Assembly (NCBI RefSeq): GCF_000317025.1
Contig: NC_019689.1
Span: 3,208,024 to 3,240,023 of the forward strand
Length of the DNA stretch: 32,000 nt
From: Pleurocapsa sp. PCC 7327
GTDB taxonomy: Bacteria; Cyanobacteriota; Cyanobacteriia; Cyanobacteriales; Microcystaceae
Reading direction: 5' to 3'
Shown here: positions 1 through 25,273 of the stretch, piece after piece
How the letters are laid out: every line of letters starts with the position of its first letter
Position numbering within the stretch: the stretch's first letter is position 1
The notes under the pieces: model-generated
Told to the model about the DNA's origin: nothing
The model's input: only the letters and a program-made list of their open reading frames with translations
The model's database searches: none
Translations under genes and position numbers: made by a program

Positions 1-141
1 CCGTTCAAAAGGACACTGAGCAGGAATGATTTTGCACAACAACCGAGCCAACTTGGGGTTATGAATCTCTACATTCTCTAGCCACAGACGCATTGGTTGT
101 AGCAGATCGATCCCAAAACTGGTTTGATTTAAGGTAGTCAT
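1..141 (-). CDS. 5' part of a CDS that runs out of the window; the N-terminus resembles cyanobacterial 'Mo-dependent nitrogenase C-terminal domain' family proteins
   Basis: Not in the ORF track because it is truncated. Minus-strand ATG at 141-139, with GGAG (complement of ctcc at 151-154) 9 nt upstream. Translation: MTTLNQTSFGIDLLQPMRLWLENVEIHNPKLARLLCKIIPAQCPFER... The LC..IPAQCPFER motif is what I recall from that family; this is recollection, not a search. Confidence 0.4.
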   Translation of the reverse strand, partial: MTTLNQTSFGIDLLQPMRLWLENVEIHNPKLARLLCKIIPAQCPFER

Positions 142-216
142 AGGTTAAATCTCCTCAAGTAACCTTCACTCAAACCTATGTCTGACCAAATTACTCTTAT
201 GCAGTCTAATGTCCTC

Positions 217-335
217 GCGCTGGGTGCGACTTCATGACTTGAAAAGCGCCACACATTCAAGAAACAGATCGTAAAACTCTTATCAGTCAATTCTGCGTAG
301 GTGCGATCGCGTGAGAGATATCTTTAAGCGAGTCT
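217..335. repeat. Intergenic repeat, copy A (two conserved blocks around a variable middle; contains a HIP1 site)
   Basis: Block 1 (gcgctgggtgcgacttcatgacttgaaaagcgcc, 217-250) and block 2 (aaactcttatcagtcaattctgcgtaggtgcgatcgcgtgagagatatctttaagcgagtc, about 274-334) recur at 3811-3957. Block 1 has 4 mismatches and block 2 has 2. Confidence 0.8.
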
Positions 336-413
336 AACTTATCAGGGTTGACTTAGCAGCAAGAAAACCATTGATGGGTTCCGAATGGGTTAATCCGGTT
401 AAGACTTAAAAAA

Positions 414-431
414 CTGCATAGGTGCGATCGC
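414..431. repeat. Partial third copy of the same repeat core (ctgcataggtgcgatcgc)
   Basis: An 18-nt match to the core of copy B (3915-3933), about 93 nt upstream of the ORF at 524. Confidence 0.5.
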
Positions 432-523
432 CTCAGATATACGTTAGCTCGAATCCAGGCTTCAGTTATAAAAACTGAGCCAACTGAAAAAATTGTCTAT
501 CTAATTACAAGGAGATAACTATC

Positions 524-802
524 ATGACTAATTTCCTATTAACAGGCGTAACTGTTGGATTCCTAACTGCTGCATCCCCCTTCTCAGAAGATGCATCCCC
601 ATTCCTGCAAACATCCCCAACTAACCCAACGCCACCCGCTGTTGAGTTAGGGATGGTCGATCGCGCGGTTGGTGAAGCATCCGAAAGCTTACTGTTAGCT
701 GGCTTCTATACTGATGACGGCTACTGCTGGACATCGACTGGCGAGGTTACTAACCCAAATGGAACTGTAATCTATCGAGGAACTCCAAACAGTTGTAGCT
801 AG
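524..802 (+). CDS. Small hypothetical protein (92 aa)
   Basis: The ORF has a strong SD (aaggagataactatcATG). I recognise no family. The middle is Pro/Thr-rich and the C-terminus has two Cys. Confidence 0.5.
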   Translation: MTNFLLTGVTVGFLTAASPFSEDASPFLQTSPTNPTPPAVELGMVDRAVGEASESLLLAGFYTDDGYCWTSTGEVTNPNGTVIYRGTPNSCS

Positions 803-983
803 ACAATCATCGGGCGTTGCTGGCAGGGAAGATAATCCGGCATACTACGAATTGCTTACAGATTGTTTGCAGGCTGCCAACCAGCAACGCTGCCTATTTT
901 AGGTTCAGATGCATTTCAGATGCATTAGCTTAAAGATTTCTATTTCCATAACAGAAATTAAATAATGGAGGTTCAGTGAAACT

Positions 984-1235
984 ATGCTGAATAAAAATGA
1001 TTCTTCACCAGTATTCCCAATCGTCTGTGCAGCGATGATAATCGGTACGCTAACCATCCCATTTACGCACAAATCCGCATCACAATCGCATTCTAACTCC
1101 GATCCATTCGCGGCATATGACAGGTTTGAAGAATGTATGTACGGTTCAAGTCGGAATCCCTTAAATACGCCTTCAAGCTTTGAACAAATTTTAGCGTGTA
1201 AATCTCAATTTAATTCTGAAATGAACGAAAGATAA
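984..1235 (+). CDS. Small hypothetical, probably exported protein (83 aa)
   Basis: GGAGG SD 9-13 nt upstream of the ATG. Hydrophobic N-terminal segment PVFPIVCAAMIIGTLTI. The N-terminal pattern is similar to that of the next ORF. Confidence 0.5.
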   Translation: MLNKNDSSPVFPIVCAAMIIGTLTIPFTHKSASQSHSNSDPFAAYDRFEECMYGSSRNPLNTPSSFEQILACKSQFNSEMNER

Positions 1236-1329
1236 ATATCTGATTCGAGACTGTATTGAATGCAGAAATACGATCGCTGGTACCAGTAAATTTGTAACAG
1301 ATTCCTAAATATGGAGTGCAACTGGAATT

Positions 1330-1620
1330 ATGTTCGCTAAAAGCAATTCACCAACAATCCTAGTTGCTTGTGCAACAGTATTAATGGGCGCATTAGTCAG
1401 TTGCGATCGAGCCGAACAATCACCTGTTTTTCCTCCAGAAAGAGGCGGGGAAAGGATATCTAATCCAGTGTCAAAAAAGGAGGAGATTTGTGAGGAAGAA
1501 GCAGCAATCCGCCAACGATATTACAACCAATGCGTGGAACAAAGAAATCAAATGGAGGGTGGTGTTGGTACGACTACGCCCTGTGAAGATTGGTTACGAA
1601 CCCCAGCCGCGTGTTTATGA
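1330..1620 (+). CDS. Small putative lipoprotein (96 aa)
   Basis: GGAG SD. The N-terminus MFAKSNSPTILVACATVLMGALVSC ends in a lipobox-like LVSC. The mature part is Cys-containing and acidic. Confidence 0.55.
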   Translation: MFAKSNSPTILVACATVLMGALVSCDRAEQSPVFPPERGGERISNPVSKKEEICEEEAAIRQRYYNQCVEQRNQMEGGVGTTTPCEDWLRTPAACL

Positions 1621-1695
1621 TGACGCTACCAACTATTGATTTGGCTACAAAACTGTCATTAAAGCATGTTCCAATCGCAGGGGAATTGATGATTT

Positions 1696-2709
1696 ATGTA
1701 TAGCGATCTTGAGGCGATTTGGCAAATAACACTTACTCGACCTCACGTCATTGAAATCAAAAACACAGGTGGCTTTTTTCAAGATAAATTCAGAGTCATT
1801 GTCGATGGAATTGAAATTTTAAATAAACTAATCTTTTTAGGTTATGGCTCGCACTCATTTATCTTGGATGATTCTCTTGTAGAAATCCGTTGGTTTGTCA
1901 ACTATTTTTCGGGGAAAATAGATTCCATTGTGCTGATGCAAGACAAGATAATCCTTGCTCAGTATGGCAGCGATCGCGCTGCCCGTAAAACTTTTATTTC
2001 TGCTTGCGATCGAGCATTTTTATCCAATCAAAATAATGAGGAAAAAATGGAGAAGAATGAAACAGGAATTATGATGCTAGCCTTATTAATTACTACTAGC
2101 ATTATTGGCGGCGGTATTTGGTGGCTTAGTCATAATTTTGACTTTTTTGAACGAGATAAAAATCCAACATCAATTTCTACACCTTTACCAACAACTAATC
2201 CAAATGAATCAACAGAAGAAGGAGCGGATGGGCTTCCTTCTCCCGAATCAGAGATATCCGAGCCATTTTCGACTGGAGATCGACCGACAGTTCAACCCAT
2301 TGAAACTCCTGTTCGGACTCAATCAGACGAGCTTCCAGCCTATGTTAATGGATACCTAGTATGGAGAGGGAAACAAATTCCCGTTGATTGGGGAGAAATG
2401 CCATACTATTTCCAAATCGAGAGGATCGATGTAGAAAAAAAAGAAATGCCAAACAGTGGCAAGCTAGTTACTGCCATTACTTTCATTGTTACAGCTAGAC
2501 GTGAGGTGTTTTATTCTGACAGTAGTTTTTATATTAAATACTATGACTCAGACGGAATTGAAGTTAGACCTTCTAATCTAGGGCTTCCACAGGTTGAGTA
2601 CAATCCCAGGATTAGGCGTAGTCGCAAGCGTAGTAGAGCATTCTTTCCCATTCCAGAAGGCGATGAACTTTCCCAGGTTAATGTAATTAAGCTCGAAGGA
2701 AGCCCCTAG
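1696..2709 (+). CDS. Hypothetical single-pass membrane protein (337 aa)
   Basis: Long ORF with a TM segment IMMLALLITTSIIGGGIWWL mid-protein, then a Pro/Thr/Ser/Glu-rich linker and a C-terminal globular part. I recognise no family. Confidence 0.6.
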   Translation: MYSDLEAIWQITLTRPHVIEIKNTGGFFQDKFRVIVDGIEILNKLIFLGYGSHSFILDDSLVEIRWFVNYFSGKIDSIVLMQDKIILAQYGSDRAARKTFISACDRAFLSNQNNEEKMEKNETGIMMLALLITTSIIGGGIWWLSHNFDFFERDKNPTSISTPLPTTNPNESTEEGADGLPSPESEISEPFSTGDRPTVQPIETPVRTQSDELPAYVNGYLVWRGKQIPVDWGEMPYYFQIERIDVEKKEMPNSGKLVTAITFIVTARREVFYSDSSFYIKYYDSDGIEVRPSNLGLPQVEYNPRIRRSRKRSRAFFPIPEGDELSQVNVIKLEGSP

Positions 2710-2955
2710 ATCGAGAATAATCCAATCCAATTTATCTGTCTTGAGTGCGTCGATCTATCCTAATAAAAGCATCTTTGAGGGAGAAAGAAATCGATCGACG
2801 AATACCTCTTAGGACTAGAACATCTCAAGTCGCTGCATTACTCGTGGCAAGAATGCCAGCAAATGGAGGACATCTATTTAGATCATCGGAACTACCGCAT
2901 CAGGTAAGAAAGCAGGACTGTTTACTAAAGCCGATGAGACAAGCGCGATCGCCAT

Positions 2956-3384
2956 CTATTCTCCTAGTTCATGCACGTAAGCGGGTCGGGGAGAGAGTCG
3001 ATCGAGTAAAACCCGATCGATTGTCCAAAATTGGGCAGATTCGCTTTCGGCAACTGCTAGAAAGGAAGCATCATAGAGGGTTGGGAGTTGATACTGCTGT
3101 GCAAGTTCCCAGGATCTCATTCTAACCGACTCCTCATTGATGTAGTCTATGGGGAAATTACAAAAGTCCTCATAACAGCCTTGCGCTTGCTCTGCCGTCA
3201 GCAAATCCATCCTGATTTTTTTTCGCAAGACAGACCCGATTTCTGCCCAAGCAAAGGCGGGAGCCACTAAACGGGCAGCCCCTGAAACGGCTTCTAATAC
3301 CAGAGTATCTGCCTGGGGTTCGTGTTCGTCTGGGACGAGGTAGGACACTAAAACGCTGGTATCTAGACAGAAAACTCTATTCAC
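2956..3384 (-). CDS. vapC: PIN-domain toxin (VapC-type ribonuclease)
   Basis: The N-terminal CLDTSVL motif, AEIGSV, LYDASFLA and TIDR supply the acidic PIN residues. 142 aa. The GTG start overlaps the upstream antitoxin stop (GTGAATAG). Confidence 0.85.
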   Translation of the reverse strand: MNRVFCLDTSVLVSYLVPDEHEPQADTLVLEAVSGAARLVAPAFAWAEIGSVLRKKIRMDLLTAEQAQGCYEDFCNFPIDYINEESVRMRSWELAQQYQLPTLYDASFLAVAESESAQFWTIDRVLLDRLSPRPAYVHELGE

Positions 3385-3631
3385 GCCGCCCTTCTCCTTT
3401 TCTAAGAGCGCGAATCAGTGCGGTAGCATCTGGCTGTACGCCAGTTTTCGCCTTAATTTCAGCCCGCCTAGCCACAATGCTCTCATGGGCTGAGAGTGCA
3501 CGCCTCCGTTTCACCTCTCGCTCTACTGCTTCTACCACTAGCTCATTGAAGGATTCCCCACCATATTTTAGCTGTTTGGCTTGACAGACTAACTTGGCAG
3601 GAAAGCGGATGGTAACGGCTTCACGTTCCAT
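3377..3631 (-). CDS. VapB-type antitoxin (probable ribbon-helix-helix / Arc-like DNA-binding N-terminus)
   Basis: 84 aa. It lies immediately upstream of the PIN gene and overlaps it by 8 nt. The N-terminal beta-strand-like TIRFPAKL followed by helices is typical of RHH antitoxins. Confidence 0.7.
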   Translation of the reverse strand: MEREAVTIRFPAKLVCQAKQLKYGGESFNELVVEAVEREVKRRRALSAHESIVARRAEIKAKTGVQPDATALIRALRKGEGRRE

Positions 3632-3810
3632 ATCGATCTATCTAGTAACTTAATTGTGATATCATTTATTGTAACCTTTTTGCGATAGCAATGGTTCGCT
3701 CCGCCTCTCTAATCGCGCTTGAATCTCGCCTGAGACGTTGGAGAGAAAATTGTATTCGGTACACTGTTCTATTGCGTTTCCAGATCCGTCAGTTCAGGGG
3801 CAAGGCGATC

Positions 3811-3957
3811 GCGCTGGGTGCGACTCCATAACTTGAGAAGCTCCGCCTCCGAGAGGTTGAAGTTTTTAAAGACTGTGCATTTAGGAAATAGTTGGCAAAC
3901 TCTTATCAGTCAATTCTGCATAGGTGCGATCGCGTGAGAGATATCTTTAAGCGAATC
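3811..3957. repeat. Intergenic repeat, copy B (same orientation as copy A)
   Basis: See copy A. The conserved blocks are at 3811-3843 and 3898-3957, around a longer variable middle. It ends 20 nt before the ATG at 3977. Confidence 0.8.
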
Positions 3958-3976
3958 AGACTACAGGAGTACTGAG

Positions 3977-4225
3977 ATGGATATAGTCAAAAAAGTAGCG
4001 GATAGAATCGCTAATGGAGCAAACTACCTAGCCGACGAGGCAGAAAAGCGGATGAACTACTCCAGAGGCTTTAAAGACGGATATAACGACCGACCTCGTA
4101 ATCGTTTTTTTGAGAATCTCAGCGATTATCAAGAAGGATACGAAGCAGGACGTAAACAAGCTCAAGCAGATACGAAATCTCCTTCCCTATTACCTCGTTC
4201 TTTCCAAAAGCCTAATGAGGATTAA
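3977..4225 (+). CDS. Small hypothetical protein (82 aa)
   Basis: AGGAG SD 8 nt upstream. Hydrophilic, with duplicated G(F/Y)xDGY / EGYEAG motifs. No family recognised. Confidence 0.5.
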   Translation: MDIVKKVADRIANGANYLADEAEKRMNYSRGFKDGYNDRPRNRFFENLSDYQEGYEAGRKQAQADTKSPSLLPRSFQKPNED

Positions 4226-4288
4226 CCTCTAAGAAACTTGAGAAATTCCTGGCTGAAAAGCCAGGAGTAGTTTATACAAGGAGTTGTC

Positions 4289-4744
4289 ATGAGTAATAGA
4301 TTCAAGCTTATATCTCGTCGAATTTTAGCTGAGAGGGGTTCTCCTTTGAGATTTGGGAATCATGTCGGTGTTTACGATGAAAGATACGAAGAGGTTTTAG
4401 ACCTTGGCTTCAATGAAGAAGACAATTCCATAATTATTAGAATTAGTTCGCTTGAAGAATTTAAACAAGGGGAACAAGTCAGATTTGAGTTAATAGAAGG
4501 AATGAGTTCTGAATCGGAAATTGAAAGTAGGTGGCACGCAATATCCTCAGCGTGGAAAAATAGCGAATTAAACCATCTTAAATTCAATCTTTATTCACTA
4601 AATTGTGAAACTCTGGCGTACTTCGTGCTGACAGGCAGAGAAAATACTCCACAAGGGGAAGAACTCAACGATTTAATCGGGGAGATGCTAGTTGGATCAT
4701 TAAGAGGACTGGCTAATATTCTGAGGAGCTGGTCTTCTGATTGA
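4289..4744 (+). CDS. LRAT / NlpC-P60 superfamily-like protein (papain-fold His/Cys)
   Basis: AAGGAG SD. NHVGVY (His about residue 25) and LNCETLAYFV (Cys about residue 106) resemble the H.G(I/V)Y and NCEHF motifs of LRAT/H-REV107-type enzymes, with similar spacing. This is a motif-level call only. Confidence 0.4.
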   Translation: MSNRFKLISRRILAERGSPLRFGNHVGVYDERYEEVLDLGFNEEDNSIIIRISSLEEFKQGEQVRFELIEGMSSESEIESRWHAISSAWKNSELNHLKFNLYSLNCETLAYFVLTGRENTPQGEELNDLIGEMLVGSLRGLANILRSWSSD

Positions 4745-4776
4745 TTAGTGATAAGCACATGGAGAGTTGAAATACT

Positions 4777-5625
4777 ATGTCTGAGCCGCTTCAAGAGAAT
4801 TTGCAGTCACACGTCAAGGAAATTGCGCGTCCACGAGATCCCTATCTTGCCAATGGTGGGCATTTTTACGTCCAAGAATATATTCGTCAAGAGTTAGCAC
4901 AATGGGGGGAAGTAGAGGTACATGAATTTCAAGTGCGGGGTAAAACCCACCAAAATTTCATCCTCGATTTACCCAATGATACCAATACTCAGAAACCACC
5001 GATTTTAATTGGTGCACACTATGATGCGGTTATTGGTTCTCCTGGTGCTGACGACAATGCTACAGGTGTAGCTGTATTGTTGGAATTGGCAAGAATCTTT
5101 GCTGCTGAACCAGGACATTATCCTTTGAGGTTGGTGGCATTCGATCTTGAGGAATACAATTTGCTAGGTAGTTTTTGCTATGCCAGCAAATTACGACGAC
5201 AAGAACAGCCCTTACGTTTAACCATTTCTTTAGAAATGTTAGGTTATTGCAACCATAATCCCGGTTCGCAACAATACCCTCCTGGCTTAAATTTTTTCTA
5301 TCCTAGCAAAGGTGATTTCATTGCCTTAATTGGCAATTTGCCTACCTTACTTGACCTAATTCATATTAGTTACCACATTAAAAACACAGGAATCCCTTGT
5401 GAATGGCTTCCAGTGGCGATAAGGGGTTTGCTGCTTCCTGATACTCGAAGAAGCGATCATGCTCCTTTTTGGGACAACGGCTATCCAGCCATTATGGTCA
5501 CTGACACAGCCAATTTACGAAATCCTCATTACCATCAGCCAAGTGACACCATCGATACTGTAGATTTTGAGTTTTTAACAGGCGTTTTGAAGGGTCTAGC
5601 TACTGGTATTAGAAACATAAGATGA
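4777..5625 (+). CDS. M28 family zinc peptidase (aminopeptidase-like), cytoplasmic
   Basis: GAHYDAV, GADDNATGVAVLLELAR, DLEEYNLLGS and SDHAPFW match the M28 metal-ligand and catalytic motifs. There is no signal peptide. Confidence 0.85.
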   Translation: MSEPLQENLQSHVKEIARPRDPYLANGGHFYVQEYIRQELAQWGEVEVHEFQVRGKTHQNFILDLPNDTNTQKPPILIGAHYDAVIGSPGADDNATGVAVLLELARIFAAEPGHYPLRLVAFDLEEYNLLGSFCYASKLRRQEQPLRLTISLEMLGYCNHNPGSQQYPPGLNFFYPSKGDFIALIGNLPTLLDLIHISYHIKNTGIPCEWLPVAIRGLLLPDTRRSDHAPFWDNGYPAIMVTDTANLRNPHYHQPSDTIDTVDFEFLTGVLKGLATGIRNIR

Positions 5626-5641
5626 AATTGAGAGAAAAAAC

Positions 5642-7540
5642 ATGGATGTCAAACATATTCACTTTATTGGTTTCGACTTAGGACACGGGCAAACCGCACT
5701 TGCATCTATCCCAACCCACGCTTCTGCTCGCTTGGAAATCCTTGAGATTAATAATAAAAAGGTTCAGACCACAGCATTTAAGCGCAGCGACGATGGAAAA
5801 ATTGCTACAGGCGATCGAGCTTTTAATAGCGTTGTTGAGCCTCCGAATCAACTCTGTATTGCTTTCAAAAAAAGAGCAACTTCAGAGCCTGAGTACAGAA
5901 AAAATATGCAAGAGTATTATTACTCAACCCTTCAGCATCTCCAGGAAACTAATCAAGTGCCTCAATGGCATGACAGAGTTATTATCATCGGTTGCCCCTC
6001 CGAGTGGAAGCAAAAAGAACGCGAATCTTATCAAGAGCTTTTCAGTAATCCCCAATTTCCAAAGCCTGAAGTTGTTTCTGAGTCCCGTGCTGCTCTTCTC
6101 CATGTCATGGAACAGCAGGGAAAAACTCTCACCAAGGCGGATCTTGATGACGGGGCTGTGCTGGTCATTGATTGTGGCTCTTCTACCACGGATTTTACGA
6201 TTATTCATGGTTGGAATTCAGAAGAGCCATTAAAAGATTTTGGGGAAGACCTTGGTGCTTCTTACTTTGATGAAGAAATTTTCAAATACTCAGTAGAACA
6301 AAATGAAGATGCAGCTAATCTCATTGCTTTGATTCAAGCAAATGCCAATCTAGTGCCCATAATGAAATACCTCTGCCGACAAGCGAAAGAGAAATATTTT
6401 GATGCTCCAGATGATTTCGCTGAAGACAATGTTTCGGTTGGCTATCGACGGATTGGGAATACAATTTTCGAGCCATTGGTTAATGGCGTGCTGATGAATC
6501 AACTAATTCACCAACCGCTTGCTAATTCTCAATATTCATGGATTCAAACTTTCCAAAATCTCCTTCAAAGAGCTAAAAATGAGATTACCACGCGGGGATA
6601 TTCTCTAAGAGCCATACTGCTTACAGGTGGAGCTTCTCGTATGGGTTTTATTAGAGAAAGCATTAAGCAAATATTTCTTCAAGAAAACCCAGAAATCAAG
6701 TTTCAACAAGATCCAGAGCCAGAATTTTCAGTTGCTAGTGGATTAGCTCGATGGGGAAGGCGACGATATCTAATCGAATCTTTCCGTGAGAATACCAAAC
6801 GTGTCTTTGATGAAGAAATGCCTGAGCTAATTGAAAAACACAGCAGTGAGTTTCTAGATATCCTTATACCTAAGCTCATGGATACAGTTATTCCTCTATT
6901 TGTTATTCCGGGTCTATTTGATTGGAAGCAAGGAAAATTCGAGACGACTGAAGTTCTTCAGAAACAAATTAAGCAACAAACTAATCAGTGGTTGCAAACA
7001 TCTGAAGGAATAGAACTTATAGCTTCAGTCGGTAACGAGTGGTGGCATAAGGGGGTTGGCAAGGAGTTTTTATTTTTTATAGATCCTCTGTGTAGAAAGC
7101 ATGATGTACCTACAGGTTCAATGGATCTTAAAATTCCTTTTCGTTCAGAAAGTTTTTTCGATCCAGAATTTCCTTTCCCTATTCCACTAGAGCCACTAGT
7201 CAGATTCATTGGTTACATTATTTTTTGGGTAATTGTGTGGGCATTACCTTTAGGTGGTCCGATAATCGCCGCTTTTATCACTTTCTTTGCCAAGGATGAG
7301 GTTGACAAATTTATTGACCTGAGCATCAAGAAAATTAATATGCCAAAGTTGCTAAGAACCACTGTTAATGATACGGAGATTGAGAGTCTCGATCTTAAAC
7401 GGCACGAAATTGCGAACAAAACACGAGAAATGATTAGTAGTGATGATAAAGCTATGAAAAATATCACCTCGCAAATTCTCAAACACCTACGTACAGAAGT
7501 CGAAAAAAAGGCTGATGAAGCTAGTCGTTTTATTCAGTAA
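5642..7540 (+). CDS. Hsp70-like (ASKHA fold) ATPase with a non-chaperone C-terminal region and a membrane anchor
   Basis: Phosphate-1 FDLGHGQT, phosphate-2 VIDCGSSTTDFT and adenosine motif LLTGGASRMGFIRESI are present. There is no DnaK-type substrate-binding domain. A hydrophobic stretch FIGYIIFWVIVWALPLGGPIIAAFITFFA is encoded at about 7201-7290. Confidence 0.75.
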   Translation: MDVKHIHFIGFDLGHGQTALASIPTHASARLEILEINNKKVQTTAFKRSDDGKIATGDRAFNSVVEPPNQLCIAFKKRATSEPEYRKNMQEYYYSTLQHLQETNQVPQWHDRVIIIGCPSEWKQKERESYQELFSNPQFPKPEVVSESRAALLHVMEQQGKTLTKADLDDGAVLVIDCGSSTTDFTIIHGWNSEEPLKDFGEDLGASYFDEEIFKYSVEQNEDAANLIALIQANANLVPIMKYLCRQAKEKYFDAPDDFAEDNVSVGYRRIGNTIFEPLVNGVLMNQLIHQPLANSQYSWIQTFQNLLQRAKNEITTRGYSLRAILLTGGASRMGFIRESIKQIFLQENPEIKFQQDPEPEFSVASGLARWGRRRYLIESFRENTKRVFDEEMPELIEKHSSEFLDILIPKLMDTVIPLFVIPGLFDWKQGKFETTEVLQKQIKQQTNQWLQTSEGIELIASVGNEWWHKGVGKEFLFFIDPLCRKHDVPTGSMDLKIPFRSESFFDPEFPFPIPLEPLVRFIGYIIFWVIVWALPLGGPIIAAFITFFAKDEVDKFIDLSIKKINMPKLLRTTVNDTEIESLDLKRHEIANKTREMISSDDKAMKNITSQILKHLRTEVEKKADEASRFIQ

Positions 7541-7583
7541 AAAAGCAAAAATTAAGAACAGTAAAAATAATTAGGAGTCAGCC

Positions 7584-8717
7584 ATGTTTTTTAATTGGTT
7601 CGGAAATAAATCCAACAAATACGAAGATTACTACGACAAAATAATTGCATCTCCGATACCAGCATTAGAAAGAGAGATAGATAAATGTCTAGAAGACTTT
7701 ACGAACGAAAGACGAGAACTCAAAAAATTTCGTCAAGATATTGATGAGCAAATAAAACAGATAGAAGAAACTCAGCAAAGGCAGCGATATCTTTTTAACA
7801 GTCTCGGAGAACTATTATCTCAAAACAATATTCCAGTTACTCCTCAAAATATTAAGTGGGTGATGCAACAAATCCAAGCTCAACCGAATGAATATTCTTT
7901 TGTTGAGCAACAAATGATTTATTGGCGCAAACATCATCTTGAGTTAGCTATTAGACAAATAATCCAGAAACTCCCTTATCCTCCACCTGTGGTAGAACAA
8001 ACAGTAGCTTGGATGGTACAACAGGTAAACGCTCAACAAAATGAAATCCTCTTTATTCAACAGCAAATGCTTTATGAACGCCAAGAATATCTAGCTCACA
8101 TAATTAGATATGGCTTACAAAATATTGGTCGTCCTATCCCAGTGAATTTACCCAATATTAACGGATTGATACAGTATATTAATACTCACTTTCAATGTCA
8201 ATGCCAACCAGATGAAGGTTCTTTTTTTGGCGAACAAATGCAACTTTATTGGTCAGGACAACCCCTACCAATCGACCGCAAAAGTTACCTTAAAAGTTGT
8301 ACGCTTGAATTCTTCTACAAAAGAGTTGCTCATTATCACAAGAGGTCGGGAAGAAGTAGAAATCTATCCTATCAACAAGATTTAGCTGCTATTGATAGAC
8401 AGAAAGAAGTAAATGCCTATCACAAATATCTGGATGAAAAACGCCTAGTTGAACACCTAGAAAATACTCAAAGGAATTGGGAAGGATTAGGAAGTAGCTT
8501 AAGCCGGGATTTGGCTAACGAACAATTAGAATTGCGTAAAAGATGGGAAGCTGCAATGCTGGCAGCAGATTCTAGCGAACAATTTAGTCAAAATGCCGCA
8601 AAATTCCAGAAGTTAGCAGAAGAAGAAGAAAGGAAATTAAAGTATTATGAACAGCTAAATATTGACGTTTTTACTGAAGGTTTAGTTGATTTTATTCTCA
8701 CAGAACCATTAGATTAA
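7584..8717 (+). CDS. Coiled-coil protein with three internal repeats of about 48 aa (hypothetical)
   Basis: AGGAG SD. The repeats IPVTPQNIKWVMQQIQAQPNEYSFVEQQMIYW..., PPVVEQTVAWMVQQVNAQQNEILFIQQQMLYE... and IPVNLPNINGLIQYIN...FFGEQMQLYW are encoded at about 7830-8261. The flanks are Glu/Lys/Gln-rich and helical. Confidence 0.65.
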   Translation: MFFNWFGNKSNKYEDYYDKIIASPIPALEREIDKCLEDFTNERRELKKFRQDIDEQIKQIEETQQRQRYLFNSLGELLSQNNIPVTPQNIKWVMQQIQAQPNEYSFVEQQMIYWRKHHLELAIRQIIQKLPYPPPVVEQTVAWMVQQVNAQQNEILFIQQQMLYERQEYLAHIIRYGLQNIGRPIPVNLPNINGLIQYINTHFQCQCQPDEGSFFGEQMQLYWSGQPLPIDRKSYLKSCTLEFFYKRVAHYHKRSGRSRNLSYQQDLAAIDRQKEVNAYHKYLDEKRLVEHLENTQRNWEGLGSSLSRDLANEQLELRKRWEAAMLAADSSEQFSQNAAKFQKLAEEEERKLKYYEQLNIDVFTEGLVDFILTEPLD

Positions 8718-8732
8718 ATTGGGAGAAAAAGT

Positions 8733-8837
8733 ATGTCTGAGAAATTACCGACAGACAATAAAAGATTAGTTAGCAAATTAGTTCGATCTGCTAGCGAACT
8801 AAAATCGAAAGTATCGGCAGTAATACAGTCATCTTAA
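8733..8837 (+). CDS. 34-aa ORF, possibly the N-terminal fragment of a gene split by an in-frame stop
   Basis: GGGAG SD 7 nt upstream of the ATG at 8733. Translation MSEKLPTDNKRLVSKLVRSASELKSKVSAVIQSS, then TAA at 8835-8837. It is in the same reading frame as the ORF at 8850-9059. Confidence 0.35.
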   Translation: MSEKLPTDNKRLVSKLVRSASELKSKVSAVIQSS

Positions 8838-8849
8838 CAGGCAGAAATC

Positions 8850-9059
8850 TTGATTAATTTCATTGAACAACGCATTCATCAATTAGGTGATTCTCTCCGT
8901 GACGAAATGCACCAGATTTCTGAAAAGTATCGCTCTGAAATGGAGCAAGTATACCTGCAAAAACAGCAACAATTACGCCGTGAAGCCATGTATCAGTGGT
9001 TCATTACTTTGGCTTTACTAATAGCAATGATGGCGAAAAATAGTATCTTAAATTTTTAA
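8850..9059 (+). CDS. Small protein with a C-terminal TM helix (69 aa from a TTG start); the start is uncertain
   Basis: The only start available is TTG at 8850. A helical Gln/Glu-rich part is followed by WFITLALLIAMMA. It is in frame with the ORF at 8733-8837. Confidence 0.4.
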   Translation: MINFIEQRIHQLGDSLRDEMHQISEKYRSEMEQVYLQKQQQLRREAMYQWFITLALLIAMMAKNSILNF

Positions 9060-9080
9060 AGAAAAGCTAATTTTGTAGTC

Positions 9081-9875
9081 ATGAGTCAGCAAATACAAAG
9101 TCAGATTGAACAAATCACCCTTCAAAGGTATCGAGAACTTATCCAAGGGGGTGCCATCGTAGTTCAGGATTGGTACGGTACAGTACATCTACAACAAATT
9201 CTCAATCAGTTTGCTTCTGCAACTGGAGCAAGGGCACGTTTCTTCATAGTAGATGCCCCACTTCAAATTCTTGCTCAAGCAGCAGACGGATGGAATGCAG
9301 AAAGTTTAGCTGATGGAACCTTTATTTTTAATTACGATTTGCTAAATGCCAGTTGGTCAATAGCAGAAGGATACGCCTGCTGGCGCGCAGATCCATCTTT
9401 TAATCTGAATTATCATTTTTGGCTGATAGCTCAGGCTTTAAGGAGCGACTTTGATATTATGCCCCCTACCGATATATTTGGGCAACTCCAGTATCAAACA
9501 AGCCAGATCTTTCGAGACATGATTGCTTTTGTTGCGGCACACGAACTTGCCCACTTTATCAAACATGATTTGGCAAGGAAATTAGTAGAAGCATCGTTGA
9601 CGGGAAGTACTCCAATTTCCGCCATGTTTTTCAGTCGGGGACTCGAAATTGAAGCTGACCTTCTTGGTTTGAGTCTCCTTGTACAGGCAGGATATGACCC
9701 GCGTGGGGCATTATTATCTCTTGCTTTTATGGACTATTTGGACAAGTTTACGGGCAGACAGCCTCATCCTTTAGATCCCCATCCACCAGCTAGCGATCGC
9801 TTCACGATCGTCCAGCAATGGCTGACTAATAATGGATTTCCACTTCCACAGATTTTTGAGCGGATTCATATATAG
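9081..9875 (+). CDS. M48-like HExxH zinc metallopeptidase, soluble
   Basis: AAHELAHFIKHD (HExxH) is followed by GLEIEADLLGLSLLVQAGYDPRGAL. This is the E..AD...G....AGYDP pattern of M48 family peptidases. No TM segments. Confidence 0.7.
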   Translation: MSQQIQSQIEQITLQRYRELIQGGAIVVQDWYGTVHLQQILNQFASATGARARFFIVDAPLQILAQAADGWNAESLADGTFIFNYDLLNASWSIAEGYACWRADPSFNLNYHFWLIAQALRSDFDIMPPTDIFGQLQYQTSQIFRDMIAFVAAHELAHFIKHDLARKLVEASLTGSTPISAMFFSRGLEIEADLLGLSLLVQAGYDPRGALLSLAFMDYLDKFTGRQPHPLDPHPPASDRFTIVQQWLTNNGFPLPQIFERIHI

Positions 9876-9947
9876 CTAAATCCCTAGATAAATCTTTAGA
9901 AGTTTTTGCAACACGACCCTAGAACTCAGGTTTTCCTCTAACTTGGC

Positions 9948-10766
9948 TCACTGACTAATCTCAATGTCGCTAGATTCGCATAGATAGCTCAAGACTTCTT
10001 GGGCATTGCGAGTCAGAGTAGGAGACGGATTTTTCACAGAGTAGATTTCCTGCAAAGCATCCGACCAAAGACCTAGTTGGGCAAAATAGTTAGCGCGTTG
10101 TAAGGCGATTTCCTCGACAGTGGCTCCTGCTGTTTTCAGTTGCGTTTCCAGTTCCGCCAGTTTAGAGGCGATATCATTGCGCTCTTGGGACTCCATCACT
10201 TGAAAAGTAAAGCGCTGCCGATGGGAAGACGGAACGACCAATTCCCAATCGTAGATTTTACCAGGCTGCAACGCCTCTCCGGTATACTTAACACTTTGAA
10301 ATTTTGCCGTTTGAGATTGTGCCGTGACAGTCTGACTCCACAACAGTTCCTGCTCGCGATCGGGATTAAAAGGACTGTAAAGGCGAATTTTGATACTTGG
10401 TGCCGTTCCTTGCCAGAGAAACAGAGGGCGATCGCTCCAGATGATATTTTTTTCTCCTAGCAAACCGGGGGTAATCTCGCAGACATTCCCTCGTGAGGTT
10501 AAGGCAGGCTCGTTCCGTTTCGATTTCAATAATTCCCAAAGAACTGCCCAGACTGAGTTCTGCTCGCTTCCTCTAGTTTCTGTTGAAGTGTTGGCATTGC
10601 GAACGCGATCTCTAGTTTCTACTGAGGACTCAGAATTCGGCTGAGCAAAGGCACTGAGAATCAATCCAGAGTAGAAACAGGCGGTAGCTGTGGCAGCCAG
10701 TAGCAATATAGACGCGATTTTCTGGCTGGGTTTTCGAGTTGAGGTCAACGACTTGATATTAACCAT
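9948..10766 (-). CDS. Secreted DUF928-family protein
   Basis: Signal peptide ILLLAATATACFYSGLILSAFA|QP. The size, the C-terminal TPR-like helices and the position next to a CHAT gene fit cyanobacterial DUF928 proteins as I recall them. The start overlaps the upstream gene by 8 nt. Confidence 0.6.
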   Translation of the reverse strand: MVNIKSLTSTRKPSQKIASILLLAATATACFYSGLILSAFAQPNSESSVETRDRVRNANTSTETRGSEQNSVWAVLWELLKSKRNEPALTSRGNVCEITPGLLGEKNIIWSDRPLFLWQGTAPSIKIRLYSPFNPDREQELLWSQTVTAQSQTAKFQSVKYTGEALQPGKIYDWELVVPSSHRQRFTFQVMESQERNDIASKLAELETQLKTAGATVEEIALQRANYFAQLGLWSDALQEIYSVKNPSPTLTRNAQEVLSYLCESSDIEISQ

Positions 10767-13218
10767 GAGATGTCCTCCTCAAAGTCGGCAAAACATAAAT
10801 CCAAAAGGCTACTGACGGCAGAAACCAAGGCAGCAATACCGCAGCAGAGATATAAACCTGTAGTCCAATGAGAATATAAGCGGCTGTAGCGCCAGCTAGC
10901 CCAATTGCCCACTGCCATCGATCTCTGTACTGTTTCCTCAGCACCAGTGTGGCTCTTTTGCCCAGCAAAACTGCTATGCCGATCGCCCAAAGATCGGGAA
11001 TGGGAACGACTAATCGCTGTGCCAGCAAATGATGAATCATGTAAGCAAGGGCTTCAGATCCCGCGAATTTGTCTGGGTTGGTTGCCGCAGAAACCCGCCG
11101 TTTTCGCCAGTAAGCAACGGCTAGAGGCGCTGGGAAATTATCTGCCCCAGGTATGATTCCTGCTTCGTCATATCCTCCTGGGGCAACGATCGCGATTTGC
11201 TGCTCGAACCGATCGCCTGCTAAAGTATCGACATTATCATCGAGTAACTGCCAAGCGGCAATGCGATCGTAAACCAAGTCTGGGGGAATCGAAAAGTCAT
11301 TGATAGGTCGCAACCAAAGTTGACCAAAGTTTTCGGCAAAGCTGCTTATCGGGTGAAGCCGTGTTTGGCGTAAGAAGGCAACAGTATCGTTGGGTTTATC
11401 TCCCTCGTTGAGATAATTAAATACTTGGGTACGAAAATCGCTTCGGTTATTTAATCGCGGTTTCGGCAAATCAGAGGCAAAAGGGTCTTGATTGAGTGCG
11501 TAAACTACTGCCAGCAGATAGGCAAAGGGACAAGTCTGGTAACAATCTGTTTTTGCAGGTAAAAGTCTGACATATTGGGGCAAGGCATTAGTATAACCTT
11601 CGAGACTCCAATAACGTTTCGCAATGCCAGTTTCAGGCGCTCCCCCCACTTCTTTTCCATTATCCAACTGAGCTGCAAATACAATCCAAATGCCTTTCCG
11701 ATCGACCGCAGTGCGGATAGATTGTGAGAGTAGGCGATCGTTCCCAGGTCTGTCTAGAAGATAATCGATTCCTACAACTTTGGCATCTAAGGCTGAGAGT
11801 TTGTCAATCAAACTAGCTAGATAGCTGCGATCGATTGGATTGGGATCGGAGATCCCCGCTTTCTGAATTGACCGCTCGTCGATCTGAACCAACAGGACGG
11901 GGGGTAATGCCGCAGGTGGAATTTGTCCCGTGACATCGCGGTAGATTGCCTGGATTAAGACTCGCCCTTCTAATAAAAAGTCCTGTACGGGGGGAAATAA
12001 GCTCAGTAGTACTAACGATCCCAGAGCGATCGCTTCTCGGCGCGTGGGCAACCACTGTTTGAGCCATTGCCTAAAGCCAAAAGGTTCAATTTGAAATAGA
12101 TCGGCATCGGGATGACAAAATAAGGAAGGAATGAGGTAAGCAGAGGGATAGGTAAGGTTCTGTTGCTGCTTGAGATATTGACAGGCTGCCAGCAGGGCAT
12201 CGCACACGTCTTTGTATTGGGTTAAGAGTTGCAGAAACCGCACCAGAAAGGCTTGCGCGACTCGATTGTGGATTGGCTCCCGCATCACTGCCACTTGGCT
12301 TAGTCCCAAGTCAATCAGCGAGGCAGCCATACTGAGTCCCCGACAGGAGTTAAAGAGAGCAAATTGAAGTCCTCGCTCTTTGGCTAGCTGTAATTGTGGC
12401 GCAATTTCACTGACGAACATTGACGCGCCAGGGGCGATCGCTAACTCTCCTCCAGTAATGGCAGTTTCATTGCTATGTCCGGCGAAAAATAAAATATCCC
12501 AACCCCGTTCGTCTGCGATCGCCTCACAAATCTGCGCCTTGAGTTCGGATATGGCTTTTCCGGGTTGCCAGCCAACAAATTGAATCTCTGCCACGGAGAC
12601 TAACGATCGCAAAGCTTGCCGATCCCCTTGAAAGTTCAGTCCCGTGTCATCGCCTAAAATAGCTAAGACGCGAGTTCGACCGCGACGAAATCTCTGACGC
12701 TGGGGAGTCGTTTCTGCCCGGATGTTAACTGGAGTGCGAGCAAAGCGAATGGCGACCGTCCCGGTAAATTCTGTTCCAATTTCCCAAGCTTCCCAAGGAA
12801 ATCGCTCTAGCTCAATTGGGTTACAAGTGAGGAAAACATCGACGCAGCCGCCACCGAGCTTTGACTGGACGGGCACTTGCTCTGCTAGGCGCTTAGCGGC
12901 ACGGGCAATCTCAGTGCGAATTTCAAAGAGTTCTTGACAGCGAAGCCAGCGATGAAACTCAGACAGCAGCATGGCTTCCGCCTGCACCAGTTGGGCATGG
13001 CGCTCGACGGTCGCTCCGCTGCCAGAAGCTTCCACTCGCGATCGCAACGCCGTTTTATAAAAGCCCAGATAAGCTCGCTGCCACTCCTGATACAGTTTCG
13101 TCAGTGCTTCTGGATAGGACAAGGTAGCGCAAAGCTGTTGTCCTCTACCCCAAGACAGCTCAAAAAGACAAGCTCGATCGATTTGTTGGACTTTGAGCCG
13201 AAAAATAGAGCGAAGCAT
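10759..13218 (-). CDS. CHAT (caspase-like protease) domain fused to a CHASE2 sensor domain; multi-pass membrane protein
   Basis: The N-terminal about 390 aa carry the His/Cys dyad context ILFFAGHSNE (His about 248) and ALFNSCRG (Cys about 292). A TM segment AIALGSLVLLSLFPPV follows, then about 320 aa of CHASE2-like region (VLLVQIDERS...GIDYLLDRP...), then three C-terminal TM helices. Confidence 0.8.
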   Translation of the reverse strand: MLRSIFRLKVQQIDRACLFELSWGRGQQLCATLSYPEALTKLYQEWQRAYLGFYKTALRSRVEASGSGATVERHAQLVQAEAMLLSEFHRWLRCQELFEIRTEIARAAKRLAEQVPVQSKLGGGCVDVFLTCNPIELERFPWEAWEIGTEFTGTVAIRFARTPVNIRAETTPQRQRFRRGRTRVLAILGDDTGLNFQGDRQALRSLVSVAEIQFVGWQPGKAISELKAQICEAIADERGWDILFFAGHSNETAITGGELAIAPGASMFVSEIAPQLQLAKERGLQFALFNSCRGLSMAASLIDLGLSQVAVMREPIHNRVAQAFLVRFLQLLTQYKDVCDALLAACQYLKQQQNLTYPSAYLIPSLFCHPDADLFQIEPFGFRQWLKQWLPTRREAIALGSLVLLSLFPPVQDFLLEGRVLIQAIYRDVTGQIPPAALPPVLLVQIDERSIQKAGISDPNPIDRSYLASLIDKLSALDAKVVGIDYLLDRPGNDRLLSQSIRTAVDRKGIWIVFAAQLDNGKEVGGAPETGIAKRYWSLEGYTNALPQYVRLLPAKTDCYQTCPFAYLLAVVYALNQDPFASDLPKPRLNNRSDFRTQVFNYLNEGDKPNDTVAFLRQTRLHPISSFAENFGQLWLRPINDFSIPPDLVYDRIAAWQLLDDNVDTLAGDRFEQQIAIVAPGGYDEAGIIPGADNFPAPLAVAYWRKRRVSAATNPDKFAGSEALAYMIHHLLAQRLVVPIPDLWAIGIAVLLGKRATLVLRKQYRDRWQWAIGLAGATAAYILIGLQVYISAAVLLPWFLPSVAFWIYVLPTLRRTSHG

Positions 13219-14570
13219 TATTGCGATTCTTCACGAATAAAGGCAAAGGACGGCAATGTAAGGGTTTCTCCATCCATCAAGACAAGGGTCACTAGAAATT
13301 GCTCGTTCAATGCGCCGACGACACGAGTATAGAGATAGGTATCCCCTGGGTTAGGCTCTACCTCGACTAAAACATTCGTTAGCTCGCTGACTCGTAATTT
13401 GAGTCCTTGGGGCAGCTCGTTCCCAGACCGCGTTCCTAAGATTAGCAGCAACGTCCACTCCGATTGAATGGGAATAGACCAGGTGACGGCGTACAATCGC
13501 AAGAGATTCTCAGCTAAAGTCAAGTCTCGGTAAGCGCCACGCGCCTGGGTAGGGATTTCCATGCCCCTACTTCTTAACTGGGCGATTATCGCCCCGAACT
13601 CTTCAGCAGGCGATTCAACGACAGTATCTCTCAGGGAACGTAGGGGTACTGTAGCCAAATCCGGGGGCGGAAGTACCATCCAAGATAGATTCTGGGCGAA
13701 CTCGTCTAGCTCGTCCTGTAACCACAGCCATACATTCACGACTTGTTGGGTTAGGTTTTGTAAGATTTGTGAAAGTTGACCGATCGGTTGTGCTTCTGTT
13801 TGCAGGCAGTATAGCCAATCTAGTAGCTCTGGACTGCTCAGCAGTGCCGCTCCCTGCTCCCAAGTCAATACCTTCCACAAGGGGCGATTTGGAGATTGTA
13901 GCTGTGGGATTAGAGGTTCTAGTTCAGCTTGTATCCCCGATAGAGACGCTAAGCGATTAGTTGGTATCGCAGGCAGAGGGATGGCAGTCGGTTCCAAACA
14001 GCGCAGGTAGAGCAACAAGCGATCGGGATCGCGATCGAACCATGCGTATGGCAGCTCGTAAGTCCAGTCTGGCTCGGCTTGTAAGTTAGCAGATTGCAGA
14101 CGGTCTACGAGTTGGTCGTGGCGGATGAAGCTCTTAATTGTGGCTTGTTCCTGCTCTTCTCGAACCTCTACCAGCACATAAAAATGGGCGGCATATTCTG
14201 GCAAGTCAATGGCTGCTCTTGGGAAAGCGATCGCTTCATCGATTAGGGTTCCGGTTGCCAGCAAGCAAAGTTTAAACTCGCCCACCTCTAGATTACAATC
14301 CGCAGCGATCGCGTTGGCATACTGCGGCTGCAATACAGTACAGTTTTCCGAGTTGACCCGAAGCTCTGCTGCTCGCTCGCTCAGCCACTGCTCGAAACCA
14401 AATAACGCTAAAGCATTGAGATAGATTTGCCATTGCCGGAATTCATTCACAATTTGGCTGCTGAGTTGTACGGCTCGGTCAATCTTGTCCGATTCGAGGA
14501 AAATTGTCTCTACGGGCAAGGATTCAAAGTCGAGCAGAAGGTCAGTCGGATCGTTAGGGAAGTTAGTCAT
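13218..14570 (-). CDS. DUF1822-family protein (acidic, soluble, function unknown)
   Basis: 450 aa. The N-terminal ...EFRQWQIYLNALALFGFEQWLSE... pattern is what I recall for cyanobacterial DUF1822. The start overlaps the upstream stop (ATGA), and its own stop overlaps the next start (TAATG). Confidence 0.6.
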   Translation of the reverse strand: MTNFPNDPTDLLLDFESLPVETIFLESDKIDRAVQLSSQIVNEFRQWQIYLNALALFGFEQWLSERAAELRVNSENCTVLQPQYANAIAADCNLEVGEFKLCLLATGTLIDEAIAFPRAAIDLPEYAAHFYVLVEVREEQEQATIKSFIRHDQLVDRLQSANLQAEPDWTYELPYAWFDRDPDRLLLYLRCLEPTAIPLPAIPTNRLASLSGIQAELEPLIPQLQSPNRPLWKVLTWEQGAALLSSPELLDWLYCLQTEAQPIGQLSQILQNLTQQVVNVWLWLQDELDEFAQNLSWMVLPPPDLATVPLRSLRDTVVESPAEEFGAIIAQLRSRGMEIPTQARGAYRDLTLAENLLRLYAVTWSIPIQSEWTLLLILGTRSGNELPQGLKLRVSELTNVLVEVEPNPGDTYLYTRVVGALNEQFLVTLVLMDGETLTLPSFAFIREESQ

Positions 14571-15985: not shown

Positions 15986-16320
15986 AGTTATTAGACCTAG
16001 CTCGGACTAATTACATAATGAAACCTCCTGCGGCTAAGCGATCTAAGCTCTTAACTTTTGTTTGTAGTCGTTTTCTTGACCGAGGTCTTTTCTGTCAGCC
16101 TTACCTATCTCTAAACGCGCCGAGCTTATGCAGCTATTAATCTGCATAGAGCAACAGAGCAAGTAAGATGGCATCGCATTTATGCTTATCCTCTCTGAAT
16201 TGACAGTTCTACAGCAAGCGCATAGAGCTTTTTTGCATATCCTTTACTCGTTTGGAGAGAAAGTCAAATAGCCGCTAACCAAATAGGACCTATTTTGCCA
16301 CAGCCGCCAATCTAGGACTA

Positions 16321-24960: not shown

Positions 24961-25066
24961 GAGACAAAGGGACAGGGAAACTAGGAGACGGGAGTGCGGG
25001 GGGAGTGTGGGAGATGTGAGGAGAAACGGGAGCTTCTGGAGGCAGGGGAGAAGAGAAACAAGACCA
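24776..25066 (+). repeat. Polypurine (A/G-rich) low-complexity tract with internal short repeats
   Basis: The plus strand is overwhelmingly purine by eye. gggagtgtggga occurs 3 times, agacaaaaaag-type units about 4 times and ctaggagac twice. ORFs are open in several frames on both strands (track entries 24486-25081). Confidence 0.8.
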
Positions 25067-25095
25067 ACCACTAACTACTAACTACTATCCACTAA

Positions 25096-25238
25096 TATCA
25101 AATCCGGATGAATGACCACAATAACCAGTAGTGCGAAAGATCCTTCGCTATCCCCTTCGCTATCGCTGGGGGCTTCTCATCTTGGTCGCGAGCGGGACAC
25201 TCGCACTACACATTATGACTAATTAAACGGATTTGATA
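25096..25238 (+). mobile_element. MITE-like element, copy 1 (143 bp; perfect 11-bp TIR tatcaaatccg; flanked by TAA on both sides)
   Basis: The left end tatcaaatccg (25096-25106) is the exact reverse complement of the right end cggatttgata (25228-25238). TAA lies at 25093-25095 and 25239-25241. It is homologous to 26598-26718. Confidence 0.7.
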
Positions 25239-25273
25239 TAACAATCCAAAATCCTTTCATCCAATGAAGAACT

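Follow-up and report, generated by a model that had tools for sequence, protein, structure and literature searches.

A 32-kb stretch of DNA from Pleurocapsa sp. PCC 7327 (the window; coordinates below are window positions unless a relative's locus is named) contains, at 3772-9887, an island of seven genes, one of which encodes an ATPase with an Hsp70-type nucleotide-binding domain (NBD). From a comparison of the window with loci of relatives, labeled L008 to L135, we conclude that the island is an accessory cassette acquired by horizontal transfer and that it occupies a spot which is prone to recombination and varies between strains. The genes within it form a strain-specific mosaic of exchangeable parts, not a conserved machine, and the ATPase gene itself has been replaced in sister strains.

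The HIP1 motif (GCGATCGC) occurs 31 times in the window, compared with 0.55 occurrences expected from shuffled sequences, and not once between the sites at 3926-3933 and 9793-9800. A preliminary description of this DNA, made by eye, had reported this HIP1-free span, and the scan bears it out; the nine sites that it counted in 9948-15985 are also exact, and the further sites that it noticed in the first 3.9 kb number six (1-3933). The gap by itself is weak evidence because 5.7% of simulations that scatter 31 sites uniformly produce one of at least 5,860 bp. The site density in the rest of the window (1.19 per kb) would predict 6.9 sites inside the gap, and the probability of finding none is ∼0.001. 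A single copy of the HIP1 core, CGATCG, is present in the 5,859 bp of 3934-9792 (0.17 per kb), versus 3.3 per kb in the left flank and 3.0 per kb in the right; a Poisson estimate from the flank densities predicts ∼18 sites (P ∼ 3e-7 for the one observed). Since a single CGATCG is about what base composition predicts, the island lacks the HIP1 enrichment of its host. GATC is likewise sparser, at 2.6 per kb versus 6.4 to 6.6 per kb in the flanks. The segment had also looked AT-richer than its surroundings, and its GC content is indeed 0.394 versus 0.458 in the rest of the window, with third-position GC of 0.27 to 0.36 in its genes and a right flank (0.48 to 0.52) far above the island. Low GC is not specific to the island, as regions at 19.5-21.5 kb and 1-2.5 kb also have values of ∼0.39 to 0.41.

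The block at 3772-9887 recurs, at ∼95 to 98% identity, in eight loci (L011, L012, L013, L014, and L132 to L135) with three different flank arrangements. The foreign look that had been ascribed to this segment is thus upheld both by the CGATCG and GC deviations and by the inheritance of the block between differing flanks. Deviant composition, discrete boundaries, and variable flanks, by which genomic islands are recognized, are all present; domain scans of window positions 1-10000 found no recombinase (integrase or transposase). The genes lie in one orientation, separated by spacers of 15 to 63 nucleotides (nt). The minus strand of the island holds only short open reading frames (ORFs), and an Rfam scan of the window returned no match. 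Across the near-identical copies, dN/dS is 0.05 to 0.48 for every island gene; this purifying selection indicates that the ORFs are real genes. dS differs several-fold between neighboring genes, which points to recombination inside the island.

One exchange affects the ATPase gene. In L132, L133, and L134, window positions 5759-7542 are exchanged for 1.45 kb encoding a 416-amino-acid (aa) protein, and all other island genes are spared. With L008 and L010, the island has nothing but the ATPase gene in common (75 to 78% nucleotide identity, sharp junctions), and the 3' junction of this gene (7542-7544) is the same against L008, L010, and L132. Because the gene is replaced in L132 to L134 and this 3' junction is shared, we regard it as an exchangeable cassette. 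The 416-aa protein has a Walker A motif (GSQGSGKTS) followed ∼40 aa later by DIGGG, and it weakly matches Arf and small GTPases in the PDB. A homolog with 25% identity is encoded on a Nostoc plasmid between integrase genes. In L132 (11352-12955), the gene is preceded by a chimeric 98-aa ORF composed of the first 39 ATPase codons and an apparent GTPase C-terminal fragment.

The ATPase is recognized as Hsp70-like mainly through its predicted structure. An AlphaFold model built from a 25-sequence alignment (pLDDT 84, pTM 0.77) superposes residues 1 to ∼370 on the NBDs of DnaK, mortalin, and BiP, and the top 50 Foldseek matches in the PDB are all Hsp70 NBDs (E of 4e-13, target-normalized TM-score of ∼0.65). 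At the sequence level, the protein scores 19.9 bits against the Pfam HSP70 model PF00012, just under the cutoff of 20.6, and 22.9 against a cutoff of 648 for the NCBIfam DnaK model; a sequence search of the PDB found no match. The phosphate-1, phosphate-2, and adenosine motifs are intact (GFDLGHG10, SESRAA146, DCGSSTTD177, and LTGGASRM327), and D12, K76, E147, D177, the threonine of SSTTD, GGASR, and G329 are invariant across the family. An active ATPase would be expected because these equivalents of the Hsp70 catalytic residues do not vary; sequence and model together indicate a catalytically intact NBD of the Hsp70 type. Residues 363 to 632 are modeled as all-helical, with a helical domain at 363-500, a hydrophobic hairpin of 35 residues at 514-550 with an LPLGGP turn, and C-terminal helices. 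This helical half stands where a substrate-binding domain (SBD) would be, in agreement with the preliminary description of an Hsp70-like ATPase that carries a transmembrane (TM) anchor and no SBD.

To place this protein, we examined its family, which is large. More than 1,500 proteins match the ATPase, and relatives are encoded in 406 GTDB species genomes; filamentous cyanobacteria make up most of these hosts, alongside Chloroflexi and Phycisphaerae, and relatives also occur in rumen and soil metagenomes. The ATPase aligns end to end with family members (31 to 44% identity, 99 to 100% coverage, E values down to 1e-76 to 1e-169), the family alignment has 58 invariant columns, and the hairpin is common to the family. 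Proteins from Hydrococcus and Pleurocapsa metagenome-assembled genomes are 98 to 99% identical. Source databases name family members just "Hsp70 family protein" or "hypothetical."

In the wider family, the ATPase gene and an upstream gene for a two-TM protein of ∼300 to 340 aa form a strict two-gene module: this partner lies directly upstream in 77 of the 80 loci from genomes and in 27 of the 33 from metagenomes. The other neighbors of the pair are highly variable, the 176 nearest falling into 126 clusters at 60% identity. A hidden Markov model of the partner found nothing among the ORFs of window positions 1-16000, and the partner is also missing from the subfamily of proteins 68 to 77% identical to the window ATPase. 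We considered whether cc377 (the coiled-coil protein of the island), o108, or another island protein could be a diverged or relocated partner and rejected each one (hhalign probability below 1%). The window ATPase shares 44% identity with Chloroflexi proteins and 31% with the main cyanobacterial clades, which also speaks for a foreign origin; it is a partner-less offshoot in a clade sister to a Chloroflexi-type clade. The island had been described as an operon built around the ATPase, and this description fails in three respects: the usual partner is absent, the other island genes do not travel with the family elsewhere, and the body of the ATPase gene is replaced in a sister lineage, with patatin upstream in other close relatives.

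Some family loci have a mobile or conflict-related context. In tblastn searches, phages gave no match and plasmids a single one, to a Calothrix plasmid on which the ATPase-partner pair is flanked by integrases; in Phycisphaerae, a copy of the pair adjoins a type I-C CRISPR-Cas locus and PRTRC-type genes. Metagenome and viral collections scanned with the single ATPase sequence gave no match, and an alignment-based metagenome scan found relatives that were all distant and partner bearing. We found no literature on the pair and no curated model for it.

Two further observations concern the family. Proteins P0011 and P0012 are fusions of ∼1,090 aa in which two complete tandem Hsp70-type NBDs precede a single helical and hairpin domain, suggesting that the NBDs work as dimers. 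In ∼11 Nostoc loci (for example, L051 at 10325-11149), a Peptidase_M90 gene (MtfA-like, HExxH) lies directly downstream of the pair, which may reflect lineage synteny or a recurring metallopeptidase link.

The preliminary description had proposed co-occurrence across genomes as a test of its own operon hypothesis. Homologs of o82, the LRAT-like protein, the M28 peptidase, cc377, o108, and the M48-like peptidase are found in none of 113 ATPase-family loci. Even the closest non-identical relatives of the ATPase (68 to 77%) have neighbors other than the island genes. In L010, L129, and L130, a YjcZ-like gene and a patatin gene lie upstream of the ATPase relative, and the patatin matches phospholipase-effector models of PADLOC; in L008, the contig that carries the relative also encodes a D5-type primase and has plasmid-like genes. 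Furthermore, cc377 and the LRAT-like protein are near-orphans, and the nearest outside relative of cc377 is not encoded beside such an ATPase. The predicted co-occurrence therefore does not materialize.

The remaining island proteins (Table 1) differ widely in how well they can be assigned. The M28 peptidase named earlier is secure, with 107 bits against a gathering cutoff of 21.3. It retains the motifs HYD81, DDNATG92, LEEYN124, LEMLG152, and SDHAPF226, in which we take H81, D93, E125/E126, E153, and H228 to be metal-ligand or catalytic residues, and it has no signal peptide or TM segment. The M48-like HExxH peptidase is likewise confirmed: its C-terminal ∼110 residues align to the family, with HELAH at 154 and EIEAD at 189 (E189 is aligned to BepA), and it matches BepA and M48 structures (E of 0.003); its N-terminal ∼140 aa have no assignment, and it contains no TM segment. 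The HIP1 site at 9793 falls inside this gene. We asked whether it could be a paralog of the M48 gene found beside dynamin genes in sister strains and rejected this, since the similarity is confined to the HExxH region.

The 151-aa ORF, 100% identical to Ple7327_3003, had been called an LRAT/NlpC-P60-like His/Cys protein. His25 (in NHVGVY) and Cys106 (in NCE) are invariant across its three known clusters; the family assignment itself remains below threshold in Pfam (LRAT, 17.3 bits against a cutoff of 24.3; E of 0.006), and no sequence match in the PDB was found, profile searches included. Just three clusters among 5.8e9 proteins make this a near-orphan, and its gene is the fastest diverging of the island (dN/dS of 0.3 to 0.46).

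The coiled-coil protein with three repeats, cc377, was correctly described: the repeats, of ∼50 residues each, span about 84-125, 131-180, and 186-235. Repeats of this type are present in a handful of other proteins. A word search found one homologous cluster, and 1.8e9 representatives yielded eight matches, of which the best outside the copies (34% identity) does not adjoin such an ATPase. Downstream of cc377, the earlier account of eight same-strand ORFs requires one correction. Its single strand and tight spacing stand, and the number falls to seven because the tiny ORFs are a single 108-codon gene, o108, interrupted by an in-frame TAA at 8835-8837; the stop is confined to PCC 7327, and four relatives have GAA.

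Table 1. Features of the island and its immediate surroundings, in window coordinates
Feature	Position	Strand	Evidence or remark
Conserved island block	3772..9887	+	blastn breakpoints; ∼95 to 98% nt identity with relatives, flanks differing
o82, small hydrophilic protein, 82 aa	3977..4225	+	No family match; intact in all copies
LRAT/NlpC-P60-like protein (Ple7327_3003), 151 aa	4289..4744	+	Weak Pfam LRAT match
M28 metallo-aminopeptidase, 282 aa	4777..5625	+	Pfam PF04389, E of 1.3e-30
Hsp70-NBD ATPase, 632 aa	5642..7540	+	AlphaFold model, Foldseek, invariant motifs
cc377, coiled-coil ends and three ∼50-aa repeats, 377 aa	7584..8717	+	Near-orphan
o108, coiled-coil protein with C-terminal TM helix, 108 codons	8733..9059	+	Nonsense at codon 35 in this strain
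M48-like zinc metallopeptidase, cytoplasmic, 264 aa	9081..9875	+	Pfam PF01435, 33 bits versus 20.3
DUF928-gene 3' remnant	3767..3815	-	76% match to 10135-10183, a part of the intact DUF928 gene
Repeat with two HIP1 sites (121 bp apart)	3809..3957	+	Directly upstream of o82
VapC	2956-3384	-	Left flank of island
YlcI/YnfO-type antitoxin	3377-3631	-	Paired with VapC

The borders of the island record past rearrangement. L011, L013, and L014 retain a longer DUF928 fragment (aa ∼190 to 272) on the left side of the island, of which a 50-bp remnant is left in the window; DUF928 compared by tblastn with the left flanks of relatives shows 60 to 67% identity (L013 at 8222-8443, L014 at 145-393). Relatives thus have a direct-repeat layout, with a 3' fragment of ∼80 codons on the left and the intact gene on the right (repeat copy at window 9919-10207). 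This layout is reminiscent of integration at the 3' end of a gene, though it is integrase-free. The repeat with two HIP1 sites has a second copy at 215-455 (the repeat measures ∼130 to 240 bp). The two copies bracket the left variable segment both in PCC 7327 and in L132 (560-900 and 9490-9700), and L014 has a single composite copy. The repeat is probably a substrate for cassette deletion and exchange, and the copy at 3809-3957 is a possible promoter region; promoter and terminator scans score at or below shuffle expectation.

The segment between these copies differs between strains. In PCC 7327, it spans 510-3772 (∼3.3 kb) and contains three small secreted-looking ORFs, a 337-aa TM protein, and VapBC. 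Its counterpart in the sister strain (L132, 886-9513) encodes LeoA/LeoBC-like dynamins, an M48 peptidase, a Lipase_3 protein, lasso-type B and C genes, and a 67-aa ORF; the cassette order there is dynamin, M48, Lipase_3, dynamin. To the right, the HIP1-rich operon at 9948-15985 (minus strand) encodes DUF928, CHAT-CHASE2, and DUF1822 proteins and a 472-aa protein without a family match, and L013 and L132 likewise have it next to the island. At 16387-17643 (minus strand), 6.5 kb from the island, is a gene for a C-5 cytosine DNA methyltransferase.

Two other parts of the window also show HIP1 gaps. A 419-aa ORF at 19965-21224, with a GC3 of 0.236, no HIP1 site (a 1.7-kb gap), and a weak EcsC match, is probably another recent acquisition. 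The second-largest gap (3.3 kb, 22004-25335) is found within the gene for a P-type ATPase (21766-24960), which is GC-rich; a lack of HIP1 sites thus need not go with low GC.

What the island does is harder to judge. Our best guess, in which we have low confidence and to which we give clearly less than an even chance, is an acquired module at the face of the membrane in which a replaceable nucleoside triphosphatase (NTPase) gates lipid-directed and peptidase enzymes in conflict or membrane stress. The seven genes would form one transcription unit whose products act at the cytoplasmic membrane face, and the hairpin would tether the NTPase switch to the membrane. ATP binding or hydrolysis would alter the conformation or oligomeric state of the NTPase, and this change would recruit or license the co-encoded cytoplasmic hydrolases: the LRAT-like protein, as a putative Cys/His acyltransferase or phospholipase, would work on lipid, and the M28 and M48-like peptidases on protein. 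Tail-anchored o108 and the repeat protein cc377 would provide a membrane scaffold or confer specificity. The place of the NTPase would be a slot, which the Hsp70-like ATPase occupies in PCC 7327 and a P-loop Arf-like protein in the sister strain. The likeliest role would be in conflict or membrane stress (abortive-infection-like or membrane damage control) rather than housekeeping.

Three observations support such an NTPase-switch module: the replacement of one NTPase by another; the recurrence of an NTPase with a lipid hydrolase and an M48 peptidase as a theme in three places, namely, the island itself, the dynamin/M48/Lipase_3 cassette, and the YjcZ/patatin/ATPase arrangement; and the mobile or defense-adjacent contexts. 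The surroundings are suggestive of a defense or conflict role, which the preliminary description had raised as a possibility, with VapBC here, LeoA/LeoBC-like dynamins in sister strains, rapid cassette turnover, and relatives in mobile-element contexts.

Several findings weigh against the proposed module. The gene combination is not conserved beyond copies that are ∼95 to 98% identical. The Arf-like assignment of the 416-aa protein comes from subthreshold scores; so does the LRAT assignment, and the AlphaFold model of that protein, from a three-sequence alignment, is unusable (pLDDT 40). The sole argument for co-transcription is the spacing. In PADLOC-DB 2.0, six island proteins have no match, and the M48-like protein has a weak capP match at the level of HExxH (E of 0.0016); no NCBIfam or PHROG model matched in support of a defense role. 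The 120 nearest family neighbors, scanned with PADLOC and Pfam models and without a control set, are heterogeneous and show no clear defense enrichment; the matches include Uma2/PD-DExK, one methyltransferase, a PD-T4-6-like kinase, a TnpB/Cas12f-like protein, and Csx1. Finally, the lesions vary by strain: o108 has a nonsense codon in PCC 7327, the ATPase gene is replaced in L132, and in L013 (Hydrococcus sp. C42_A2020_068; 9333-10000) 228 bp are missing from within the M28 gene, such that window positions 4865-5093 have no counterpart and the gene is not called. Given such strain-to-strain differences, a dispensable or decaying cluster fits as well as a slot.

We weight equally a second explanation, a fortuitous mosaic in which unrelated accessory genes have piled up in a recombination hotspot and have no joint function. 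The genes might still be co-transcribed, and the Hsp70-like gene would be a cassette, selfish or stand-alone, that happened to insert between genes for peptidases. This account is favored by the lack of co-occurrence outside near-identical copies, by the ATPase gene being replaceable and shared alone, with sharp junctions, with L008 and L010, by the internal recombination evident from the dS differences, and by the inactivation of different genes in different strains. The wider family normally needs just its own partner gene, and the absence of defense-model matches also agrees with it. Against it stand the very tight spacing on one strand, co-inheritance as a block in three flank contexts, and purifying selection throughout. 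The replacement gene, moreover, apparently encodes another NTPase and is not a random gene, and NTPase, lipid hydrolase, and M48 genes recur in adjacent or related loci.

Comparison with known systems narrows the possibilities for the ATPase. Canonical Hsp70/DnaK shares with it the NBD fold, the equivalents of the catalytic Asp, Lys, Glu, Asp, and Thr residues, and the GGxxR adenosine motif, and differs in having a beta-sandwich SBD and lid where the ATPase has the helical domain, hairpin, and C-terminal helices; no DnaJ or GrpE gene lies near the ATPase. NTPase-centered conflict systems with variable effectors include GTPase systems with HSP70 (Kaur, Burroughs, Iyer, Aravind 2020; PMC7159879). 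These resemble the island in combining a regulatory NTPase with peptidases, variable effector-like enzymes, and displacement of components, and they too are enriched in multicellular or colonial bacteria. HSP70 in those systems is accompanied by GrpE/DnaJ or tubulin (PMC7159879), none of which is seen in the island. A DO-GTPase/GAP1 or MoxR-vWA system was rejected because the core pairs are absent: Pfam and NCBIfam models, which include no dedicated GAP1 model, reveal no GTPase, AAA+, or vWA domain in the island ORFs. The CoCoNuT protein CnuD is likewise Hsp70-like and encoded with coiled-coil proteins in a predicted defense locus; it keeps both NBD and SBD, its ATPase motifs are degenerate, and it is associated with McrB/McrC homologs (PMC11090510). 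The island ATPase is not a CnuD, since its motifs are intact and it lacks both an SBD and McrBC.

The architecture of the ATPase most resembles, by analogy, that of bacterial dynamin-like proteins. LeoA/LeoBC ("Eleos") and Bacillus subtilis DynA, known from work on defense and membrane repair (10.1101/2022.05.11.491447, 10.1101/2022.12.12.520048, and PMC12998192), also combine a large NTPase with helical bundles and a hairpin that inserts into the membrane. Some ATPase relatives are two-headed tandem-NBD fusions, much as DynA is a dynamin with two heads. LeoA/LeoBC-like genes lie, with M48 and lipase genes, directly beside the island in sister strains. Escherichia coli YjcZ is the partner of a dynamin-like GTPase (PMC6510439), and the ATPase relative in L010 has a YjcZ-like gene upstream. 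Dynamins differ in being GTPases, whereas the ATPase has an ASKHA fold, and the window contains no dynamin; the likeness is architectural and contextual. A bolder proposal, which we consider unlikely, is that hairpin-anchored Hsp70-NBD proteins are a new class of membrane-acting ATPases, analogs of dynamins, and that the island is an unrecognized defense or membrane-damage module with an interchangeable NTPase (ASKHA ATPase or small GTPase) that licenses hydrolases directed at lipid and protein. Such ATPases would come in several forms: two-headed fusions in some cases, with the two-TM partner in most, and, in the subfamily described here, partner-less beside phospholipases.

Quality control or remodeling of membrane proteins, in line with the proteolytic or remodeling machine that the preliminary description suggested first, is a quite improbable alternative. 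The membrane-tethered ATPase would extract misfolded membrane proteins or present them to the M48-like endopeptidase, and the M28 peptidase would trim the products, comparable to HtpX, Oma1, or BepA. This idea draws on the M48 membership and BepA-type match, on an intact Hsp70 NBD at the membrane, and on the Peptidase_M90 genes downstream of the family in Nostoc; yet the ATPase has no SBD, the M48-like protein has no TM segments, and a housekeeping function would not be expected to be strain-specific, foreign, swappable, and partly pseudogenized. A role as lasso-peptide accessory genes, in which the peptidases and ATPase process, export, or confer immunity to a neighboring peptide, is suggested by the 67-aa ORF, PqqD/transglutaminase B, and Asn-synthase-like C genes just upstream in L011, L013, and L132, but it is largely refuted by PCC 7327, which has the island with a different 3.3-kb cassette and without lasso genes, and appears highly improbable given that the DUF928 pseudogene fragment and the repeat element lie between and that the lasso genes carry several HIP1 sites and the island none.

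Whatever its function, the island is a clean example of how the HIP1/CGATCG signature marks recent acquisitions in cyanobacteria, and it reveals a hotspot, bounded by short repeats, that swaps cassettes, and single genes within them, between close strains. The analysis also exposes a large uncharacterized family of ATPase-partner gene pairs, found in over 400 species representatives, most of which are filamentous cyanobacteria. A fortuitous cluster would amount to an ordinary accessory island, whereas in a functional module an Hsp70-fold ATPase would join the few NTPases (dynamins, STAND proteins, MoxR, and McrB) that act as membrane-proximal switches in bacterial conflict or stress.

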